DNA from: a virus | Taxonomy: Duplodnaviria > Heunggongvirae > Uroviricota > Caudoviricetes | DNA: 42,281 nt | IMG/VR virus record: IMGVR_UViG_2778261538_000003 | Strand: one strand, 5' to 3' | Shown: in pieces, positions 1-37,110 of the stretch | How positions within the stretch are numbered: position 1 is the stretch's first letter | How the letters are laid out: each line of letters starts with the position of its first letter | Position numbers and translations under genes: made by a program | The notes under the pieces: generated by a model | Database searches by the model: none | What the model was told of the DNA's origin: nothing | The model's input: the letters and a program-made list of their open reading frames with translations, nothing else

Positions 1-267
1 ATGCGCAGAAAAGAATCAAACGTTAGCAGTTTGCCGGAACTCACCAATTTTGAGGTAAGCTATTCCCTAGTTACCAATGAAGTTTACTTGTCTGCATCCT
101 TCACTGATAACATGGCCTGTATACCAAACTGGCCCTTACAAGAATTTCCGGATCAACTAATATGCATTTCTCGAGCAAAAGCTATTGCCCTAATCGAAGA
201 GCTCCAGAAGACCATCGACTATATGGACGCAGGAATCGATCGACAATCAGGTAGCCTGCTCCAGTAG
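1..267 (+). CDS. hypothetical protein, possibly 5'-truncated by the window edge
   Basis: Open frame running from position 1; no recognisable motif; lies in the AT-rich region left of the prophage tail-fibre module. Confidence 0.3.
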   Translation: MRRKESNVSSLPELTNFEVSYSLVTNEVYLSASFTDNMACIPNWPLQEFPDQLICISRAKAIALIEELQKTIDYMDAGIDRQSGSLLQ

Positions 268-400
268 CTGGCGAGTTTTATACTCGTTCCCTGCAACAAT
301 GGGCTTTTGGTAAGGCACTCACAAATAAGGAATTCGTTAAGGCTTTTGTTCTGGAGACTCTGAAAGATACAAGGAATCAGTTGATGGCTGGTTTGATCAT

Positions 401-441
401 ACTAATTAATATATTGTCAGACTCACAATATATTAATTAGT
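401..441. repeat. perfect 17-bp inverted repeat with 7-bp spacer (ACTAATTAATATATTGT-cagactc-ACAATATATTAATTAGT)
   Basis: Read directly: 425-441 is the exact reverse complement of 401-417. AT-rich, no flanking T-run, so more likely a protein-binding operator than a terminator. Confidence 0.8.
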
Positions 442-568
442 GGTAGAACATAAAACCGAGTTCTTGACTTTCAATAGCTATTATATGCGATCAACAACCT
501 TAACCACCTCCTTATATTTTATGAGATACTCAAACAATTTAAATTTATGAGCAAAGGAAAATAATAAA

Positions 569-1414
569 GTGAATAAAAATCCCTGGGATATTCCAGCATG
601 GCACGCTCTGGGCCGAGAAGCATCTTTAGTTACACAGCTCATTGGTTCTGGGGCAACAGCCATAGGTAAAGCCAATTATGCAGACAAAATAGGTGAATAT
701 TACACAGCATTTTTTGGGCTTTCTGTAGGTTTTGAGAGACTTGCTAAACTAATACTTGTTGCACACTATGCCATTGAACACAAAGGGAAAATGCCTGATG
801 AGAATATTGTAAGAAAATTTGGACATAAGCTCATTGAATTAACCAACGAGGTTGATAGTATTTCTAAAAAAATGCAACTATCTCTGAGATATTCACGTCC
901 TACACATAAAATTACCTACAAAATACTTGAATGTTTAGATTCCTTTGCTGATGCCCGACGGGGACGTTACGCAAATTTCTCCTCATTAAGCAGCCCCAAT
1001 TTAACCAATAATGAACCTATTAATAAATGGTGGGGAGAAGTAGCCGAGAGTATCCTTGAAAAACATTATTATTATACAGTTGAACAAAGACGTGTTGAAG
1101 AAAATGCTAGGTTTATCAATGCCACTCTTTCACCGTATACAACGGTCATGTATATGAATGAAAGTACCAACATTATGCAAGACCTTATATCAGCCTCCAT
1201 CCGTACTGGACAAAATACCATTGTTCAAAAGTGGGGAAGATTCTATTCTCTTAGCATCGCTCGTTGGCTTGCCACAGTATTAGCAGAACTGTCTGATATA
1301 GCTTCTCATAAATATGGAATAATTAGTTTTTATGGCCTTAGTGAACATTGTTGCAGTTATATAGTTGAAGATAGTTTTTTAAAAAACAGAAAAATATGGC
1401 CACTTCGCCAATAG
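569..1414 (+). CDS. hypothetical protein (AT-rich cargo gene; candidate defence or abortive-infection function)
   Basis: 281-codon ORF with GTG start preceded by AGGA; visibly lower GC than the phage backbone; no family recognised; contains R-x5-H (RYSRPTH) of uncertain meaning. Confidence 0.55.
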   Translation: MNKNPWDIPAWHALGREASLVTQLIGSGATAIGKANYADKIGEYYTAFFGLSVGFERLAKLILVAHYAIEHKGKMPDENIVRKFGHKLIELTNEVDSISKKMQLSLRYSRPTHKITYKILECLDSFADARRGRYANFSSLSSPNLTNNEPINKWWGEVAESILEKHYYYTVEQRRVEENARFINATLSPYTTVMYMNESTNIMQDLISASIRTGQNTIVQKWGRFYSLSIARWLATVLAELSDIASHKYGIISFYGLSEHCCSYIVEDSFLKNRKIWPLRQ

Positions 1415-1418
1415 TTAA

Positions 1419-1733
1419 CTAGAAAATCTGCATAAGGGGGAGAAATCCCCCACCTGTAATAACATAACTACTAAAATTAACACCTTGTTCGCACAACTCC
1501 TCCACCAGCACGACAAGATGCCGCACACTGCGCCCCAGCCGATCCAGCTTCCAGACAACCAGAGTGTCACCTGCCGATAATGTCCTGAGCAGTTTTTTCA
1601 GTCCCGGCCTTTCGGACTTTGTACCGCTTATCTTGTCTTCAAAAAACAGCTCGCATCCTGCACAGTTCAGCGCATTACGTTGTAGATCTGTGTTCTGGTC
1701 ATTTGTTGACACACGTACATAGCCAATAAGCAT
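1419..1733 (-). pseudogene. truncated Gin/Pin/Hin-family DNA invertase (serine recombinase catalytic core only, C-terminal HTH missing)
   Basis: N-terminus MLIGYVRVSTNDQ...GDTLVVWKLDRLGRS matches the resolvase/invertase catalytic motif; ATG at 1733; homology ends near VNFSS and the frame stops after about 104 codons versus roughly 190 expected. Confidence 0.75.
1421..1451 (-). terminator. possible rho-independent terminator (GGGGG-agaaat-CCCCC hairpin then T-rich tract on minus strand)
   Basis: Hairpin at 1436-1451 followed on the minus strand by TTATGCAGATTTTCT; it encodes the non-homologous C-terminal tail of the truncated invertase frame. Confidence 0.35.
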
Positions 1734-1759
1734 AGTGGATCCCTCTGACAAAAGCAGGA

Positions 1760-2257
1760 ATGATGCCATTTGCTCGTTATTTCTGCATTTTCATAAACGT
1801 TGGTTTGGGAGAAGGTGCTCCAGCTATTGGCGTTCCGTTCTTCTGGCCGTCCGCTGCAATGCCAAATACTGTAATCGACAGCTGGTCCAGTATGGTGTTT
1901 TTGAAGTTCAACGGCGCGAAATTCTCTGCCACTGATTATCCTGTGCTGGCGAAAGTATTTCCTTCGCTGGTATTACCTGAAGCCCGCGGTGATTTCATTC
2001 GTATCTGGGATGACGGGCGAGGTGCAGACGGTGGTCGCGAATTATTAAGCTGGCAGGCAGCTACAAACTTTTCTCAGTTTGCCGGGAATATAGGCGAAGG
2101 TGCGGGACACGCAATTAACTTTCATGATGGCATCGCCGGAAATCAGCCAGGATTTTCACGATTTAATTTCACCAGTAACTCTGTGGGTGATGGTGTGAAT
2201 TTTGTTGCTGTCAGACCGCGAAATATTGCATTTAACTTTCTGGTGAGGGCTAAATAA
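1760..2257 (+). CDS. alternative tail-fibre C-terminal segment (silent cassette of an invertible segment; no own start)
   Basis: Frame carries IFINVGLGEG...VPFFWP, parallel to IFGFPVGQTG...FPLPFP in the expressed fibre gene on the other strand; followed directly by a tail-fibre assembly gene. Confidence 0.55.
   Translation: MMPFARYFCIFINVGLGEGAPAIGVPFFWPSAAMPNTVIDSWSSMVFLKFNGAKFSATDYPVLAKVFPSLVLPEARGDFIRIWDDGRGADGGRELLSWQAATNFSQFAGNIGEGAGHAINFHDGIAGNQPGFSRFNFTSNSVGDGVNFVAVRPRNIAFNFLVRAK
1788..1813. other. hix/gix-like 26-bp inversion crossover site (TTTTCATAAACG-TT-GGTTTGGGAGAA)
   Basis: Two 12-bp half-sites ending in AAACC-type sequence around a 2-bp core, resembling hixL as recalled; sits at the junction of the silent tail-fibre cassette next to the invertase. 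Confidence 0.5.
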
Positions 2258-2850
2258 TGAAACCTGTTTTTGATGAAAATGGGCTGGCTACAGTGCCGGG
2301 CGATATGCGTTGTTTTTATTATAATGCAGTAACGTATGAATATACCGGCTGGTCTGATGAATATATTAATACTGGCGTAAGTATACCCGCCTGTTCCACT
2401 GGTATTGACCCGGGCGAAAACATTCCGGGAAAAGTGGCAGTATTTACGGGTAAGGGATGGAGCCATGAAGAAGACCATCGCAATGAGACCGTTTACTCAA
2501 CTGAAAATGGCGCAGCTGTTACAGTGGATTATATCGGTGCCATCAAAGACGGTTATGTCACGATTTCACCGTTAACGCCATACGATAAATGGGATGGTGA
2601 GAAATGGGTGACAGACACTGAGGCACAACACAGTGCCGCAGTAGACGCGGCAGAAGCACAGCGCCAGTCACTGATTGATGCAGCAATGGCTTCCATTAGT
2701 CTGATTCAGCTGAAATTACAGGCCGGGCGGAAACTGACGCAGGCAGAAACAACCCGACTTAACGTCGTGCTGGATTACATTGACGCGGTGACGGCAACAG
2801 ATACCAGCACCGCGCCTGATGTCATCTGGCCTGAGCTGCCGGAGGCGTAG
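2257..2850 (+). CDS. tail fibre assembly protein (Tfa/U'-like, alternative copy)
   Basis: 197 aa ending ...TSTAPDVIWPELPEA, the typical Tfa C-terminus; position after the alternative fibre segment. Confidence 0.8.
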   Translation: MKPVFDENGLATVPGDMRCFYYNAVTYEYTGWSDEYINTGVSIPACSTGIDPGENIPGKVAVFTGKGWSHEEDHRNETVYSTENGAAVTVDYIGAIKDGYVTISPLTPYDKWDGEKWVTDTEAQHSAAVDAAEAQRQSLIDAAMASISLIQLKLQAGRKLTQAETTRLNVVLDYIDAVTATDTSTAPDVIWPELPEA

Positions 2851-3265
2851 GCCATTCAATATCGGGTGCTGTTGACGTATCAACACGCATCAGCAGCACA
2901 CGGTATTTCTTCCATTGGGTGAGAGTTGAAGTTTCTTCATCAGTTGCGATACCAGCATCAACAGCATCCTGACGCCAGGATATTTCACTGTCAGCTTTTG
3001 CACGAAATGTGGCTTTCATGTTTTCTGCATCTGATATTTTCTGTTCTGGTGAAAGCGGCGGCTCATCAACCCATGCAAGGGTCCCTGAAACCATTCCCAG
3101 CATTTTTCCTGTTGGCTTATTTCCCCCATTAAATCTGACAGCATCCTCATCGCTGATTTCAATACCATCCTGCGGCCATGTCCCCTCCTTGATATAACTT
3201 TCATATAGCGCTGCGTTGTAGATTGCATTTTCGGACGGGCTGTAAACACTTTTAACTTTATTCAT
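2822..3265 (-). CDS. tail fibre assembly protein (Tfa/U-like, expressed orientation)
   Basis: 147 aa ending ...VDTSTAPDIEWPTPPA; immediately downstream of the minus-strand tail-fibre gene. Confidence 0.8.
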   Translation of the reverse strand: MNKVKSVYSPSENAIYNAALYESYIKEGTWPQDGIEISDEDAVRFNGGNKPTGKMLGMVSGTLAWVDEPPLSPEQKISDAENMKATFRAKADSEISWRQDAVDAGIATDEETSTLTQWKKYRVLLMRVDTSTAPDIEWPTPPAAQAR

Positions 3266-3269
3266 TCTG

Positions 3270-4016
3270 TTATCTCCCTTTCGCTATATAGCAAAGATTA
3301 AACCCACCGGCGCCTGACATACGGGCTGTAAAACCCGTTCTTGAAGTACCAGTTGAGTTAACTCCATAAGCAGGCATGGTTGCTGGAGAAAGCAGAGACT
3401 CCTGGATATCTGCCATTGTCAGTGTAATTGATTCGACCCGCGCGGGGAAAGGTAGCGGGAAAACAACATTCGTCCCTGTCTGTCCAACGGGGAAACCGAA
3501 AATACCCCATTGTGTAATTACCCCATCCGGCCCCTTACTCCATCCAGATTTAGGATTCGGCCAGTCTGCTGCTCCAGAGTGCCCCGTTGTAAAACTACTC
3601 ATATCTGGTACTTGCCCGGTATCCGTTCCGACGTTCCTCGTTGCCGCTTCTCCCAAACCAAGGTTTTCGAGAGCTGTTTTCACCGTGCCGTCCGATTTGA
3701 TATCGCCAAACGGATTCTTGCGGCTCAGGTATTCAACAGCAAACCCCGATCCCAGCAATTCAACAAAACCGGGCAGATCACCATTATCAAGCACATCCCG
3801 TTGCGTTTTATCACTTACAAACTGGGCCAGAGCTGCAGCAATAAAGCTGGCCTGCCGAATAACCTTATTGACTTGCGCACTGGAGGCTTTCCCTGCTGTA
3901 AATCCAGATAAAAGCGCGGGCAACGCTTCCCATTCCTCCTGCGATATAACATTGGCATTTCGATCCGTTGCAAACGCTTTAAAGTCATTTTTCGCCATCA
4001 GAGTAATACTCCCCAT
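3270..4016 (-). CDS. tail fibre protein
   Basis: 248 aa, Gly/Thr/Ser-rich; last structural gene of the tail operon, followed by Tfa. Confidence 0.7.
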   Translation of the reverse strand: MGSITLMAKNDFKAFATDRNANVISQEEWEALPALLSGFTAGKASSAQVNKVIRQASFIAAALAQFVSDKTQRDVLDNGDLPGFVELLGSGFAVEYLSRKNPFGDIKSDGTVKTALENLGLGEAATRNVGTDTGQVPDMSSFTTGHSGAADWPNPKSGWSKGPDGVITQWGIFGFPVGQTGTNVVFPLPFPARVESITLTMADIQESLLSPATMPAYGVNSTGTSRTGFTARMSGAGGFNLCYIAKGR

Positions 4017-4678
4017 GCTCCTACATCAAAACCACTGATGAATTCGTTATCCATATCAAAACCAAAAAATTTTGAGCCTTCCGATGGGGTTTCCACCGAA
4101 GGTGTTTCAATGCCACCCGCCCATACCCCGGCGGCTTTTACTGTGAGATACCCCTGTTTAATTGCCGCAATTAACTCACGCGATACATCTGAAATATCAG
4201 TATCAGGAAAGACCCAGACCGATATCGTCATGTCCTGGTTATCGACTATCTGCATTCGCAGCCCGGATCCTGCTGTTGCCGCGTCAAGAATTGCCGGAAG
4301 CGAATCATTCCGTCCGTCCCAGTTATTAATCGCAATCTTCGCTTTAAGAATGACACGATAAGTTTCATCGCTGAGATACATGTATCCTGAATCAGGATCG
4401 TATGGTCCCTGCCATACCCCCTGATCATATCCAAGCCCGTCGGTATCCCAGCTGAAATAGACACCTGAGATAGGCTGGCTGACAACACGGCTACGTCCGA
4501 TCCACAATCCAAGGATGTCAAGTTGCACACCAACCGCAGAGTCAATATCAAATGCACTAATCAGCCCTCTGGTGGCAGCCGCAACATCAATAAGTGGCCG
4601 GGTCATCAGATCAACATGCGCAAGAAATTTAGGTTTGGTGGCGTGGTAGTTCGTGATTAGTTCGGTGTATTTGCTCAT
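3998..4678 (-). CDS. baseplate protein (gpI/XkdU-like position)
   Basis: 226 aa, overlaps neighbours by a few bases; gene order between baseplate J-like protein and tail fibre. Confidence 0.5.
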   Translation of the reverse strand: MSKYTELITNYHATKPKFLAHVDLMTRPLIDVAAATRGLISAFDIDSAVGVQLDILGLWIGRSRVVSQPISGVYFSWDTDGLGYDQGVWQGPYDPDSGYMYLSDETYRVILKAKIAINNWDGRNDSLPAILDAATAGSGLRMQIVDNQDMTISVWVFPDTDISDVSRELIAAIKQGYLTVKAAGVWAGGIETPSVETPSEGSKFFGFDMDNEFISGFDVGAWGVLL

Positions 4679-5874
4679 GACTCCACCGTTATAACGATAT
4701 TTTTCGGGGTACAGGACGCAGATTCGTTGTATCTGATATCAATGTTTGATGACGACAAAGCCCCCGGGGATTTCCCAATCGTCAGTTCCTGAATATCGTA
4801 ATAGCGTGCATTCCCGCCACTCACCACGCCAAGATTCGCCGGTGAGTAAATGCGACTTAAAAGGACCGAATCACCAATCATCAGACTATTGATATAGTCG
4901 GAAATAGCCTGCTGGATCTGCTGCCCTATCTGTGAGGTATAACCCGTAAAAACTTTTAATTTAATCAGGGCATAAACAGGCACATCACTGGAACGCGAGA
5001 ATTTGATTACATGGGGATTGCCGTATTTATCCGGAACCGTAACGGATGTTGTACCGTGAGTGGCTGTCCCCTGGCCTTTATTCCCTCTGATAGCCTGAGC
5101 AATATCCGTTACATCACCGCCATCCACAATTACAGCAACAGAGTGTGGCGGTAACCCGTTACCGTCCTCCGAACCAGTATCGTTTTCATAGAGTTTGTGG
5201 CGGGTTACACCGGTAACATTAGAAACAGCACCATCCAGTGCTTCAAATGGGGTTATTGATGGCAACGCAACACTTTGCGACTGGCGGATACGTAACTCAG
5301 CGTCAGTTTCTGCCGGAGTGCCCACAGTGGCTGCAGCAGGATTGGTTACCGAAACCCAGCCACGGGTTGGCGTATTAATTTCAGTGATAGTTCCAGCCAG
5401 CGCCGCCACTGCACCACTGACGGAACATGTTGCGGTCACCATCACTGTACCATCCACGCCTACCACCACTGAAGCAGGCAAACGCCATATCACATTATTA
5501 CTGTCTTTCACGCTGCCATTAATGATGGTTGTTCCGGCAGTTCCTGTAAGAAGCAAATCAACCGTAGAGTTCGTCGCGCCTTTACGTGAAATACCATTTA
5601 TTTTCACGTTACAGGTCAGTGCAGCCCCATAGCCGGTTGCCGGTGAAAAACAGTTGTAGACAGTTATCGCAGTATTATTGGCATCATGAATCGCCAGCGC
5701 CATCAGAGCCACCATCTGGCCGTCTTTGCTGTCCGGTTCGAGGTAGGCATCACTGCCATAAATCTGCTGAAAATAGCTAATCAGGGTGCTGAGTATCGTC
5801 TGATAATCAGGCGCACTGATCCCCTCCGCGGTTACCTTTGCAGATAAACCGAGAGAATCAAGGTTCAGAGCCAT
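4675..5874 (-). CDS. baseplate J-like protein
   Basis: 399 aa; size and position typical of the baseplate wedge protein in contractile-tail operons. Confidence 0.6.
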   Translation of the reverse strand: MALNLDSLGLSAKVTAEGISAPDYQTILSTLISYFQQIYGSDAYLEPDSKDGQMVALMALAIHDANNTAITVYNCFSPATGYGAALTCNVKINGISRKGATNSTVDLLLTGTAGTTIINGSVKDSNNVIWRLPASVVVGVDGTVMVTATCSVSGAVAALAGTITEINTPTRGWVSVTNPAAATVGTPAETDAELRIRQSQSVALPSITPFEALDGAVSNVTGVTRHKLYENDTGSEDGNGLPPHSVAVIVDGGDVTDIAQAIRGNKGQGTATHGTTSVTVPDKYGNPHVIKFSRSSDVPVYALIKLKVFTGYTSQIGQQIQQAISDYINSLMIGDSVLLSRIYSPANLGVVSGGNARYYDIQELTIGKSPGALSSSNIDIRYNESASCTPKNIVITVES

Positions 5875-6227
5875 TACGCCTCCGATGTAACAGTCGTTAT
5901 TCCATAAAGAGTGTCGATTTCAGCGGAAAACATGACACGTCGGGTCGTGGTATCCAGCGTCGTATTGAAAGAGAGGATTGATTTAACGCCCTGCGTTTCG
6001 AGGATGCGCTTACGGATCGCCAGGTTGTAGGTTTCCGGCTTCTGCTTACCGAGTACGGACTGGATCCACGGAGTCCCCTCGGTGGTGTCGAGAAACCATT
6101 GCCCATACCACAATTCGAATCGCGTTTTTACCGCCTGCGCCACGGCCTCCGGTGAGTTAATCAGCCAGGTGTCATCACCGCTGCCAAAGGTGTAATCGCC
6201 ATCGGCGTCTTCACGTCTGTATCGCAT
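5874..6227 (-). CDS. small baseplate protein (gpW/gp25-like position)
   Basis: 117 aa; stop/start overlap with the flanking baseplate genes. Confidence 0.45.
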   Translation of the reverse strand: MRYRREDADGDYTFGSGDDTWLINSPEAVAQAVKTRFELWYGQWFLDTTEGTPWIQSVLGKQKPETYNLAIRKRILETQGVKSILSFNTTLDTTTRRVMFSAEIDTLYGITTVTSEA

Positions 6228-6979
6228 CAGTTTACCCCGTCGGTACTGCTTCCACCGCGCTGAACACCACCATGAGTGTGCGTATCATCGATTGGCTTGC
6301 CGTTAGCCTTCACGCTCCCCAAAAACTCAACAGCACCAGTGATTTTTGAAGCCACACCAGAAACCACAGACCCCACCATGCCCCCCATCCAGGTTAACAG
6401 GCCATGAATGGTTACTTTCTCAGAAAAATCAGCCAGGGGGGCAACCACATCAAGCCCCCCCGGAGCGACAATTTTAATTTTCCTGGTATCAGGATTAAGC
6501 TCAAAATAGGTGCTGCCGTCGTCACTACGCAACTGTGTGGCACTGGTATTAATACCGCTAATCTTCCTAGCCTGCGACTGGGGACCGACAATACAAAACG
6601 CATCCGATAAATCATGCATTCTGTCATCAACCGTCTCCTGTATCCCGCCGCTCTGCCACCAGAAATCAATACAACGATCGGCAAAAACGACAAGACACTC
6701 ATCCCCAGCTTTTACCGGAAAAGTCAACGTACAGCCTCCGCCGCGCGGGAATACCACTGGCACATCCACCAGCAATGGGTAATTTTTGGTAATGCGGTTA
6801 CCGTCGTTATCCTTTTCAACTGACCGGATAGCTGGCTGCACAACCGCCGTCACCGCGTCAGGATCGAATGACTGAATAATGCCAGGCAAGGCGACACGGA
6901 TCTGGTTCTTTGTTGTTTCCCGTTCAGATTTAAATGTTTCGGCAAGATCGCCACTGCGGGTCTGGTCAGTTACTGCCAT
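6227..6979 (-). CDS. baseplate assembly/spike protein (gpV-like position)
   Basis: 250 aa with Gly-rich C-terminus; first gene after the cargo cassette in the baseplate block. Confidence 0.5.
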   Translation of the reverse strand: MAVTDQTRSGDLAETFKSERETTKNQIRVALPGIIQSFDPDAVTAVVQPAIRSVEKDNDGNRITKNYPLLVDVPVVFPRGGGCTLTFPVKAGDECLVVFADRCIDFWWQSGGIQETVDDRMHDLSDAFCIVGPQSQARKISGINTSATQLRSDDGSTYFELNPDTRKIKIVAPGGLDVVAPLADFSEKVTIHGLLTWMGGMVGSVVSGVASKITGAVEFLGSVKANGKPIDDTHTHGGVQRGGSSTDGVN

Positions 6980-6990
6980 TGGTAGGCTCC

Positions 6991-7013
6991 AAAAAGCAAA
7001 AAACCCGCCGGGT
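6991..7013 (-). terminator. possible terminator downstream of the tail-module cargo cassette
   Basis: Short GC hairpin (ACCC-GGC-GGGT) followed by TTTTTTGCTTTTT on the minus strand; weak stem. Confidence 0.3.
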
Positions 7014-7039
7014 GGCAGGTTTTATCTCATGAAGAATGA

Positions 7040-7552
7040 CTATCGGTGGATAGTATTAAAGTATTCAGAAAGCTGATTATCAGTTATCAAACACAACTGC
7101 ATCAAATAAATAGAGTATTTCAATAACTTTTCATCACGAACGGGGGCGGGACGTAAATACTTCCCGCCGTGAAAGAGATTATTTCTTATATACGGGATCT
7201 GCTTTAATGCTTCAGCAAGAGAATGAGGTTCGATTGGAGGTTTATCCTCCCACGAAAAATCATGCCTCTGCTGCTTCACAGGTTGCTGACATAGATACTC
7301 AACTGCCCTATCGACATTTCTATTTCCAGTAGGATATAAAGGCCGCGTATCATCAGTAGCGTAGCGGCTCCAGTCAGCACCGATTAGATAATTTCTACGA
7401 TCAGTTTTTTTGAAATTAATTCTTTTTAACGCATATTCGAAACGCGAAAAATAATTAAAAAACCTTATAACAAGAGTAATATCAATTCCGCCGAGAAGTT
7501 CCTGAAAGTCAGGGTCTTGAAATGAATTCAAAGGATCATCATCAACTGTCAC
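7040..7552 (-). CDS. hypothetical protein with a HEPN-like R-x4-H motif (cargo gene in tail operon)
   Basis: 170 aa, AT-rich; contains IRNNLFHGG; start overlaps the upstream gene by 4 bp. Confidence 0.5.
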   Translation of the reverse strand: MTVDDDPLNSFQDPDFQELLGGIDITLVIRFFNYFSRFEYALKRINFKKTDRRNYLIGADWSRYATDDTRPLYPTGNRNVDRAVEYLCQQPVKQQRHDFSWEDKPPIEPHSLAEALKQIPYIRNNLFHGGKYLRPAPVRDEKLLKYSIYLMQLCLITDNQLSEYFNTIHR

Positions 7553-7884
7553 TTGCTGCTCACTTTTTTACACGGGAAAGATCCAATGATTTTCGGCGCG
7601 TCCATGCTGTTCTGCAGCAGCTGGACGTTCAGGAAAGCTTTTCCGTTACGTTTCACAAACTCAAAGCCGTAATTGTTACCATCACGGGAAGGCATCAGGC
7701 CCATGTCCATTTTCATGTTTGAATAGTCACCATCTTTTCCCAGAAATTTTATCTTCTGTGATGTGACAGTTTCACCGTTAATAACAGTCATTCCGTCACC
7801 GGTCATCGTGTAGTTGCCGCACTGAATTGCAGCCATCGCCGGAGCAGTAACCATCATAACTAACGCCAAACATAACCGTTTCAT
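7549..7884 (-). CDS. secreted/periplasmic hypothetical protein (cargo gene in tail operon)
   Basis: 111 aa; N-terminus MKRLCLALVMMVTAPAMA-AIQ reads as a Sec signal peptide with AxA cleavage site; start overlaps the stop of the upstream tail gene. Confidence 0.55.
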   Translation of the reverse strand: MKRLCLALVMMVTAPAMAAIQCGNYTMTGDGMTVINGETVTSQKIKFLGKDGDYSNMKMDMGLMPSRDGNNYGFEFVKRNGKAFLNVQLLQNSMDAPKIIGSFPCKKVSSK

Positions 7885-8948
7885 TAAAGCCCTCTTTCCC
7901 TCGCTGATGAGGAAACAAGATCCGCCGCGCCACGCGCTTCACACATCATATCCATGTACCACGCCTGGCCCCTTGTGTCGCCAGTGTACATAATCCCGCG
8001 CACAATATAAACGCCATCCGTTGCGATGCTGGCAGGCTGCGATGTGGTGCCGCTGAGCGTGATATTTCCGTCCGTGTTCTGGTCGGTGATCTGACCACCA
8101 GCCATCGCAATATCGTTGTTCGACAACGCGGTACGATAGACGGAAGCCTGATCCAGCTGAATGAGCCCGTTAACCCGGATGTTCGGATTAATAAGCGCGC
8201 GGACGTTTACGCCGTTACCGATAGTCTGCTGCGGCATTCCAATAAGCCCGGTAGCGCTGTTGAGCACAATCGCTTCGTGAACATATTCGTTATTCACCAC
8301 CATCTGGCGCTGACCGTCCACGAATTGCCATGTTGCGCCACATTGTCCGGCTACGTTATCCATTAGATGCCGCGTCATGCCAAAGAGTACCCGCCCCCGG
8401 GGGAATACAGTAGCAGGCATTTCAGGCGTCAGGCCTTCGGTCGCGCCTTTGGCTTCGAAGTCTTTCATCAGCGCACGGTTCACATCAGCGACCGTGTAAC
8501 CGGCAGCCAGCGTCTGTGAGGTTATACTGGTAGCAAAAGCCAGATCAGTATCTGCTGCCTGAATCAGGACGTAGGTATCAACCGGACTGTCTTTTCCTGT
8601 GACCGAGTAGCGAATTTCACCGCTGAAAATCAGTCCGTAGTTGCGGCCATCTCTCTGGCCCACGTCCGCCGCGTCAACTTCCCGCACGGTCCCTACGTCG
8701 CTTGCTGACACCTCCGGCGCGATACCGTCGTAACCGGCAATCAGACGCACTTTCGAAAACTCCTGCCCGGTAATTCGGTTCACAGTATCTGCCGAGAGGT
8801 TATAAATTTTGATAGTCCCTACCCGGGACGCGCTGCTGATGTTGAACCAGTCGATCGTAAAGGTGACTTTGAAATCACTTAGCTCAATTCCCTGACCGTT
8901 CCCGTCCACAAGCTGCAGCTCGAAATGTCTCATCCAGTTCTGTGACAT
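7884..8948 (-). CDS. tail/baseplate hub protein (gpD/XkdQ-like position)
   Basis: 354 aa; gene order after tape measure in a sheath-tube tail operon. Confidence 0.45.
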   Translation of the reverse strand: MSQNWMRHFELQLVDGNGQGIELSDFKVTFTIDWFNISSASRVGTIKIYNLSADTVNRITGQEFSKVRLIAGYDGIAPEVSASDVGTVREVDAADVGQRDGRNYGLIFSGEIRYSVTGKDSPVDTYVLIQAADTDLAFATSITSQTLAAGYTVADVNRALMKDFEAKGATEGLTPEMPATVFPRGRVLFGMTRHLMDNVAGQCGATWQFVDGQRQMVVNNEYVHEAIVLNSATGLIGMPQQTIGNGVNVRALINPNIRVNGLIQLDQASVYRTALSNNDIAMAGGQITDQNTDGNITLSGTTSQPASIATDGVYIVRGIMYTGDTRGQAWYMDMMCEARGAADLVSSSARERGL

Positions 8949-36284: not shown

Positions 36285-36348
36285 TATAACTCACCTTATC
36301 GAGCTATGGCGACATGCTGAATTCGAGTAAATTAAAGGAACAATACTT

Positions 36349-37110
36349 ATGCAGGAACTAACTGAAATGCCGATCAACTATCCATACCCGAGAGAATCTT
36401 TTCCTGACTTTTTGAGGGAGTGTGGGTTCACCAATTTTTCCCACGAACAGCGTGAGACTTATGACTGCTATCGTTTAACGAATGGCGTAATTGTTAACCT
36501 TTACACCACCCGGACCATTCAGTTTCAAGGGAACCCTCAAGAACGTCCCAATGTTGAAACTGCAATAATGTCCCATTTAGGAACGCCCCCCACGGCAACA
36601 CCACTAGCCGTAGAACAGCCATCTGAGCTTCCCAAAAAGATATTCATTGTTCACGGCCATGACCATACTGCAAAGGAACAACTTGAGCTAATCCTTCATA
36701 AACTTGGATTACCAGACCATTTCATTTTGCAGAATACGGGAGGGACTGGACTCACCATTATTGAAGAGCTTGAACGTGAAATTGGGCAAGGACAAACTGC
36801 TACTCGTTTCGGGATTGTTCTTTTGACACCTGATGATATGGGATACTCAAAGCGCGCCGGTGAAGCAGAAATCCAACCCCGCGCAAGACAGAACGTTGTA
36901 CTCGAGATGGGTATGCTTCTTTCGTCCTTAGGGCGCAGCAATGTAGCAATCCTTCAGAAACAGCACCTAGAACAGCCTTCTGATGCTAACGGGATTTTGT
37001 ATCTGAATTTCAACGACCATGTACGTGAAACAGTTCCTCGTCTAGTGCAACGGTTACAAAATTCTGGTTTCGAATTTACACAAGCTCAAATAGCTAACGC
37101 TTCCTCGTAA
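36349..37110 (+). CDS. TIR-like domain protein (COG4271-type) with unknown N-terminal domain
   Basis: C-terminal half carries KIFIVHGHD ... FGIVLLTPDD ... RARQNVVLEMGML ... VAIL, matching the TIR-like nucleotide-binding fold as recalled; own terminator downstream. Confidence 0.6.
   Translation: MQELTEMPINYPYPRESFPDFLRECGFTNFSHEQRETYDCYRLTNGVIVNLYTTRTIQFQGNPQERPNVETAIMSHLGTPPTATPLAVEQPSELPKKIFIVHGHDHTAKEQLELILHKLGLPDHFILQNTGGTGLTIIEELEREIGQGQTATRFGIVLLTPDDMGYSKRAGEAEIQPRARQNVVLEMGMLLSSLGRSNVAILQKQHLEQPSDANGILYLNFNDHVRETVPRLVQRLQNSGFEFTQAQIANASS

Follow-up and report, generated by a model that had tools for sequence, protein, structure and literature searches.

A tail-fibre inversion segment beside a truncated pinE-type invertase gene in an Escherichia coli prophage, and its two orientations in sequenced genomes

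The DNA analysed here, called the window throughout, is the whole 42,281-nucleotide (nt) stretch of IMG/VR virus record IMGVR_UViG_2778261538_000003 (Duplodnaviria; Heunggongvirae; Uroviricota; Caudoviricetes). Between positions 1419 and 4016 it carries two tail-fibre cassettes which face each other across an invertible segment, and a truncated gene for a serine DNA invertase of the PinE type adjoins them. The original prediction, made from the letters alone, described this region as a fossil inversion switch which was probably locked. The inversion switch, its two cassettes and the truncated invertase are all retained in our reading; the degenerate partner site and the locked state are not. 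At the level of sequenced genomes both orientations occur in three lineages which share the truncation. We regard it as probable that the window contains an orphan segment of the e14 type which is competent in cis, and which stays locked only where the host has no helper invertase.

Window positions 1300-4100, flipped in silico, served as a query against 5,426 complete E. coli genomes. In strain 82.0312 this flipped form is present in one piece at 100% identity over 2801/2801 nt, while the match of the strain to the native form of the window is limited to the segment itself, on the opposite strand. At the base level the window and 82.0312 are identical up to position 1814 and again from 3647, and in between the segment is reverse-complemented exactly, without a single mismatch; the next 20.4 kb differ by just 2 single nucleotide polymorphisms (SNPs). 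Two other pairs of strains show the same thing with cassette pairs unlike that of the window (loci which were read are given L numbers). These are 22AR0747 and 15.TR.026_OXA (L003, L005), in which 10,763 nt are identical except for an exact inversion, and 97-3250 and O111:H11 8D (L011, L012), in which 1611 nt are exactly inverted and the sequence outside the inversion has 2 SNPs. The truncated invertase, together with the flanking open reading frame (ORF) of 281 amino acids (aa), is common to all three inverted pairs. The exact configuration of the window was found in none of the complete genomes of the collection. Because the truncation is common to the carriers read while the flipped pairs are near-identical, it is ancestral to the group and much older than the flips. 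Judged by these genomes the segment is not a dead switch, and its flips postdate the truncation. Reads in both orientations within a population were among the findings that, by the original prediction, would refute it, and at the level of sequenced genomes both orientations are indeed present. The features of the region are as follows.

569-1414, plus strand: 281-aa ORF adjoining the truncation point, followed by a hairpin, GGGGGAGAAATCCCCC, at 1436-1451
1419-1733, minus strand: truncated serine DNA invertase, pinE-type (ORF 1419-1769, likeliest start ATG 1733; from Pfam, PHROG and alignment)
1623-1687, no strand: expected place of a Fis-dependent recombinational enhancer (predicted), 100-165 bp from the left site and within the retained 5' part of the invertase gene
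1760-2257, plus strand: silent-slot ORF, with a short leader, MMPFARYFCIFINV, and the alternative fibre C-terminus "Y" (from the ORF list)
1788-1813, no strand: left crossover site, pix-type, 26 bp, TTTTCATAAACGTTGGTTTGGGAGAA = TTTTCATAAACG-TT-GGTTTGGGAGAA, central dinucleotide 1800-1801
1801-3660, no strand: invertible segment of 1860 nt with two convergent cassettes, the exact reverse complement in strain 82.0312
2257-2850, plus strand: Tfa' of the silent cassette, 197 aa (Pfam Caudo_TAP, 1.4e-27, 96.9 bits)
2822-3265, minus strand: Tfa of the currently expressed cassette, 147 aa (Pfam Caudo_TAP, 9.8e-33, 113.5 bits)
3270-3998, minus strand: expressed tail fibre, 242 aa when begun where RefSeq relatives begin it, with an upstream in-frame ATG at 4016
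3648-3673, no strand: right crossover site, pix-type, 26 bp, TTCTCCCAAACCAAGGTTTTCGAGAG = TTCTCCCAAACC-AA-GGTTTTCGAGAG, central dinucleotide 3660-3661

The top-scoring and longest inverted repeat in 1400-4100 pairs 1795-1814 with 3647-3666 (20 nt, 95% complementary) and defines both 26-bp sites. Each site has 0 mismatches to the hix/gix-type pattern, in which 16 positions are specified, and the two lie in inverted orientation with complementary cores, TT and AA. When the whole 42-kb window was scanned at ≤2 mismatches, the pattern was matched at these two sites only (4 strand-hits versus 0.12 expected), a number reached in 0/100 shuffles. The left site had been recognized from the start as well formed, and the scan agrees. 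Read as its reverse complement it is identical at 26/26 positions to the site adjoining pinE in the e14 element of E. coli K-12 (L013 4606); the reverse complement of the right site is likewise 26/26 identical to the e14 site within stfP/ycfK (L013 2779). For the P segment of e14 the repeats TTGGTTTGGGAGAAGG and CCTTCTCCCAAACCAA have been published (PMC12529663), and the inner arms of the window sites agree with them. The right site is positioned at codon 113 of the expressed fibre gene (..ALENLGLGE..), and at both sites the reading frame passes through the motif ..N(L/V)GLGE.. Left and right sites alike recur in L002 and L007, the relatives read whose pinE is full-length.

The partner site had previously been placed at about 3486-3511 and called degenerate. 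The 26-mer at that position mismatches 10/16 specified positions, which is the chance level, and the best candidate in 3440-3560 still has 7 mismatches; 3486-3511 was rejected as the partner on these grounds. The earlier search had looked in the wrong place, since the true partner at 3648-3673 is perfect and identical to an e14 pix site. The limits of the segment, first given as about 1790-3500, move accordingly to 1801-3660.

The claim that the invertase lacks its DNA-binding domain held: homology stops after codon 89, and helix E, which serves in oligomerisation, is gone as well. Nucleotides 1-267 of the gene (codons 1-89, window 1467-1733) align without gaps to the full-length 184-aa pinE of a sister prophage (L002) and are about 96% identical to it; past nt 267 there are 15 unrelated codons and then a stop, giving 104 aa in all. 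The retained part includes the catalytic serine in YVRVST. Pfam Resolvase covers residues 15-101 of the ORF only, corresponding to 2-98 of the 145 profile positions, and PHROG 125 (DNA invertase) matches residues 1-89. For the related invertase Hin, the helix E residues Phe105 and Met109 are reported to control tetramer formation (PMC4513852), and the DNA-binding-domain residues Gln151, Arg154 and Leu155 have been proposed to contact Fis (PMC3798978).

A tblastn search of the whole window gave no PinE residues beyond about 112, and no PinE-like or PinR-like coding sequence that could represent a second invertase is present elsewhere in the 42-kb prophage. A frameshift or sequencing error was considered and rejected, as DNA homology ends at nt 267 and no PinE C-terminal coding was found in the window or in 42.8 kb of 82.0312. 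A full-length invertase frame after sequence correction was the other finding that, by the original prediction, would refute it; none was found, the 3' half of the gene being absent from the whole window. As judged from the alignments, the truncation is a replacement and not a frameshift. In place of the 3' half stands an AT-rich block with the 281-aa ORF, which has a GC content of 37% versus 49% for the window. This ORF (RefSeq WP_001039127.1, "hypothetical protein") has no match in Pfam, PADLOC or PHROG. Lying at the end of the prophage, it resembles a moron or cargo gene and is possibly a defence gene. Positions 1-267 on the plus strand and the hairpin were viewed together with this block.

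Window positions 1-1420, which hold the 281-aa ORF, were used as a flanking tag and are present in 44 complete E. coli genomes at 97.9-100% identity. In every carrier read (loci L003-L012) the tag adjoins the same truncated invertase. The 41-mer spanning the junction (window 1440-1480) is exact in 8/9 loci read and has diverged in the remaining one, L008, from E. coli 14EC029 (NZ_CP024141.1, locus 5467-8526). The truncated invertase and the flanking ORF are the same there, but no pix site pair is recognizable; there is a single best site match with 3 mismatches, and the fibre is different, a 355-aa glycine-rich protein. It is 14EC029, and not the window, which looks like a truly fossilized switch. 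A sister prophage with the same X and Y cassettes (X being the expressed fibre tip) sits elsewhere on the chromosome, adjoining pphA (L001, L002, L007), and has a full-length pinE in L002 and L007. In L001 (E. coli OkiPb01676) only 93 nt of the invertase are left (locus 4004-4096). This remnant, together with the truncation of the window type, indicates that invertase decay has been independent at least twice in the prophage family.

The retained 5' part of the gene also covers the place where an enhancer would be expected. The Hin system has a 65-bp enhancer some 100 bp away from hixL (PMC3798978). The corresponding positions 1623-1687 fall within the retained 267 nt and are collinear with e14 of K-12, from which they differ at 2/65 positions. 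The enhancer would presumably be functional.

The ORFs, the Caudo_TAP hits and the fibre domains confirm two fibre/Tfa cassettes facing each other, with the adjustment that RefSeq relatives start the fibre at 3998. Both Tfa genes score above the Pfam gathering cut-off of Caudo_TAP (PF02413), which is 22.1 bits, and the 3' ends of these convergent genes overlap by 29 nt. The expressed fibre comprises a constant part, codons 1-113, and the variable tip X, codons 114-242, with a Gp53-like_C domain (Pfam). Its residues 1-118 and 1-121 match the N-terminus of the tail fibre groups PHROG 1396 and 11303, respectively, and residues 13-164 of the silent-slot ORF match positions 209-381 of 382 in the tail fibre group PHROG 3100, that is its C-terminal end. 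The N-terminal part of the fibre and the C-terminal part of Y map to opposite ends of one tail-fibre PHROG. Inverting 1801-3660 in silico produced an uninterrupted fibre in which codons 1-113 are joined to the Y tip, with Tfa' directly after; its length is 264 aa from ATG 3998 or 270 aa from ATG 4016. The same Y fusion gene is annotated in strain 82.0312 (L004 21905-22699). In position and in sequence the silent-slot ORF is homologous to stfE of e14, with 44% identity to StfE along the whole length. Its leader begins outside the invertible segment, and from ATG 1760 it is predicted to encode a free fibre-tip protein in either state, of 165 aa now and 143 aa after a flip. A scan of 1350-4100 for promoter and terminator consensus sequences gave fewer matches than shuffled sequence did.

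As there is no other invertase in the 42-kb prophage, inversion would have to be catalysed in trans. The segment is most likely flipped by the invertase of another prophage in the same cell; we infer both the catalysis in trans and the identity of the enzyme. In 82.0312 an e14-family prophage at icd contains a full-length pinE (NZ_CP122451.1 2885684-2886238), whose 184-aa product shares 176/184 residues with PinE of K-12. The same prophage has a site that equals the right site of the window. Helper genes were counted with chimeric queries, the flanking tag joined either to the 3' half of PinE or to pinR, as matching places per chromosome. By this count 82.0312 has two further PinE-type 3' halves elsewhere on its chromosome (3 places vs 1). 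The sister prophage at pphA was rejected as the helper in this strain because the locus is empty. Among the ST38-like genomes at least one PinE-like or PinR-like gene was present in 3/3 with the minority orientation and in 8/19 with the majority orientation, a trend which fits a segment that is locked unless a helper is present. There is experimental precedent in that PinQ of the Qin prophage inverts the e14 P segment in trans, and the orientation of the P segment varies among deposited genomes (PMC12529663); the e14 segment flips continuously in culture (PMC4272514).

The icd prophage of 82.0312 (L019) has features of its own. Its sites are at 6293 and 8120, the left one being divergent (TTTTCATAAATGTTGGTTTAAGAGCA) with an inner arm unlike that of its partner, and its fibre gene is annotated as a truncated pseudogene (L019 features 7901-8422). 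In this strain the prophage with the working invertase may have an impaired segment and the prophage with the working segment an impaired invertase.

Several points weigh against flipping in trans of an intact segment. The evidence on orientation comes from assembled genomes of other strains and not from reads of the strain from which the window derives. A loose scan with the 15-bp Fis consensus gave no confident assignment of Fis sites. In typing that covered PinE-like and PinR-like genes on chromosomes, neither was found in 11/19 ST38-like genomes with the majority orientation, nor in O111:H11 8D; WP3-W18-ESBL-08 is likewise counted as a helper-free carrier. The association between helper genes and the minority orientation is not significant (Fisher p = 0.21), and the genomes compared are phylogenetically non-independent. 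Deletion of pinE in K-12 was also reported to lock the P segment at native expression (PMC12529663), from which it follows that not every co-resident recombinase will suffice.

Three other explanations have to be set beside this one. If the switch were a permanently locked fossil, with a truncated invertase and one decayed site, its orientation would have been frozen at the time of inactivation. The invertase does lack residues 90-184, and 14EC029 demonstrates that true fossilization occurs in the family; a segment of this kind is expected to be static in helper-free hosts, and a single orientation is seen in all 11 ST38-like genomes in which no helper was detected. The partner site is nevertheless intact at 26/26 positions, and both orientations occur in each of three lineages, the segment itself showing 0 mismatches and the sequence beyond it 0-2 SNPs; the truncation is common to the 44-genome group and so predates these flips. 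We judge a permanent lock highly improbable. Hardly better placed, and in our estimation very unlikely, is an origin of the two orientations without a site-specific recombinase, either by RecA acting on short inverted repeats or by import of a pre-flipped segment through homologous recombination in the flanks. At pphA there do exist related prophages (L002, L007) which combine these X and Y cassettes with a full-length pinE, and cassette content is mosaic among the 44 genomes, so exchange does happen here. The shared inverted repeat is only 15-20 bp, however, which is far below the length that RecA uses efficiently, and the breakpoints of all three pairs are within the same 15 nt around the site cores. 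As for import, each flipped segment matches its partner at 100%, and the closest candidate donors which have these cassettes are 2-7% different.

The remaining explanation is that the 104-aa truncated invertase keeps some activity or a regulatory role, for example by forming mixed oligomers with a helper and thereby modulating inversion. The 89 codons which it keeps show good conservation, about 96% of their nucleotides being identical to full-length pinE; the catalytic serine motif is kept, and all the carriers of the flanking tag which were read have the same truncated ORF. On the other hand the oligomerisation helix E is missing, as is the whole DNA-binding domain including the residues proposed to contact Fis, and conservation is equally explained by the enhancer and the promoter expected in this DNA. 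Of all the explanations weighed here we give this one the least credence. Inversion in trans by the enzyme of a co-resident prophage is the reading we carry forward.

By its sites and gene order the segment is a member of the Hin/Gin/Cin/Pin family of inversion systems, of the e14 P-segment type, and is an orphan since the adjacent invertase is defective. It resembles the P segment and PinE of K-12 in having both 26-bp crossover sites identical base for base, and in the order of its parts, namely the invertase gene, a site, a stfE-like leader ORF with a tip, a tfaE-like gene, a convergent tfa, and a fibre gene with the second site. The stretch from the site through invertase codon 89 is collinear with e14, without gaps and about 94% identical, and Tfa' of the window is 64% identical to TfaE. 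It differs in that the invertase of the window is cut after codon 89 and is followed by the AT-rich 281-aa ORF instead. Moreover e14 is a 15-kb remnant at icd, whereas the window represents a prophage of about 41 kb at yfhH/yfhL with tail genes of the DUF2612 and baseplate-J type. The expressed tip of the window is of the Gp53-like_C type and only about 36% identical to e14 StfP.

The G segment of Mu, with Gin, and the C segment of P1, with Cin, belong to the same mechanistic class and have 26-bp sites with the same half-site pattern (sites were compared for Mu). In both, a constant fibre N-terminus is combined with alternative C-termini, each with its own assembly gene in the opposite orientation, and a Hin-family serine invertase adjoins the segment. 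The retained part of the window's invertase is 65% identical to Gin. The Mu sites are different in having 2 mismatches to the pattern and other bases at the variable positions, and Mu has a segment of 3 kb and an intact invertase. Action in trans is known elsewhere in the family besides PinQ on e14: Fin of Fels-2 is said, from the work of Kutsukake in 2006, to act on the Salmonella H segment, and Pin reportedly complements gin mutants, as Plasterk and van de Putte described in 1985. In all these cases, unlike the present one, the segment has its own functional invertase. In the window the cis enzyme is gone in all carriers examined, so that dependence on a helper would be obligate.

According to the RefSeq annotation of near-identical relatives, the window is in essence a single complete prophage, about 41 kb long, with yfhH and yfhL on either side of its insertion. 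The same annotation gives the gene set of the prophage, with an integrase, replication genes, the antiterminator Q, lysis genes, a terminase, and head and tail genes. On the minus strand past the fibre gene are DUF2612, baseplate J and the remaining contractile-tail module. In the phage collection searched there is no close full-length match to the region, the best coverage being 39%. Compared with window 17300-42281, strain 82.0312 (NZ_CP122451.1 1297136-1324252) has about 2.1 kb more, matching in two pieces (27,117 vs 24,982 nt), which marks the window as coming from a close relative rather than from this assembly. Between the spike gene and the upstream baseplate gene are two small ORFs on the minus strand, at 7040-7552 and 7549-7884. 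The 111-aa ORF of this pair has a signal-peptide-like N-terminus, and neither ORF has a PADLOC match. The position 7040-7884 appears to be a variable moron slot because relatives differ there, with an HMG-box protein in L001 and DUF4282 in L002 and L007. At about 36348-37109 on the plus strand lies a gene for a TIR-domain protein, assigned through its counterpart at L016 22049-22810, which RefSeq annotates in a relative of 100% identity. Its neighbours in the early region of the prophage specify a DNA polymerase, a VRR-NUC protein and an SNF2-related protein, and it is a possible defence or counter-defence gene.

In the mechanism which we propose, a serine invertase would cut at the central dinucleotide of each 26-bp site (1800-1801 and 3660-3661) and invert 1801-3660. 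Inversion would swap which tip, X or Y, is joined to fibre codons 1-113 and which Tfa chaperone follows in the late operon, and this exchange of tips would change the receptor specificity of the released virions. On this view the prophage's own invertase is dead, the elements kept in cis being the two sites and the 5' gene segment in which the enhancer normally lies. The orphan segment would be inverted in trans by the Pin-type invertase of a co-resident prophage and would be locked in helper-free hosts. One might go further and see in this a stable arrangement rather than mere decay, with inversion outsourced to co-resident Pin-encoding prophages and the 5' invertase fragment kept for the enhancer and for the start of the leader ORF (ATG 1760). 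The free fibre-tip protein might then block the adsorption of competing phages such as T2, like StfE2 of e14, and the segment might double as an invertase-triggered defence of the lysogen. We put this extended proposal forward as speculation and think it unlikely. If outsourcing were true, host range after induction would depend on the other prophages of the lysogen.

The system is of a known kind, and the action of Pin-family enzymes in trans is already established; what we have here is a small concrete example of dependency between prophages and no new mechanism. The point of interest is a modest one, namely that a widespread and apparently intact prophage would depend obligately on other prophages for its host-range switch. 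An invertase pseudogene beside an invertible segment does not mean a dead switch, because Pin-family enzymes act in trans on shared sites, and annotation pipelines and surveys of phase variation should score the sites and not just the adjacent recombinase. The virion host range of a prophage found in 44 complete genomes, including an ST38 strain and O111 strains, would depend on which other prophages reside in the same cell.

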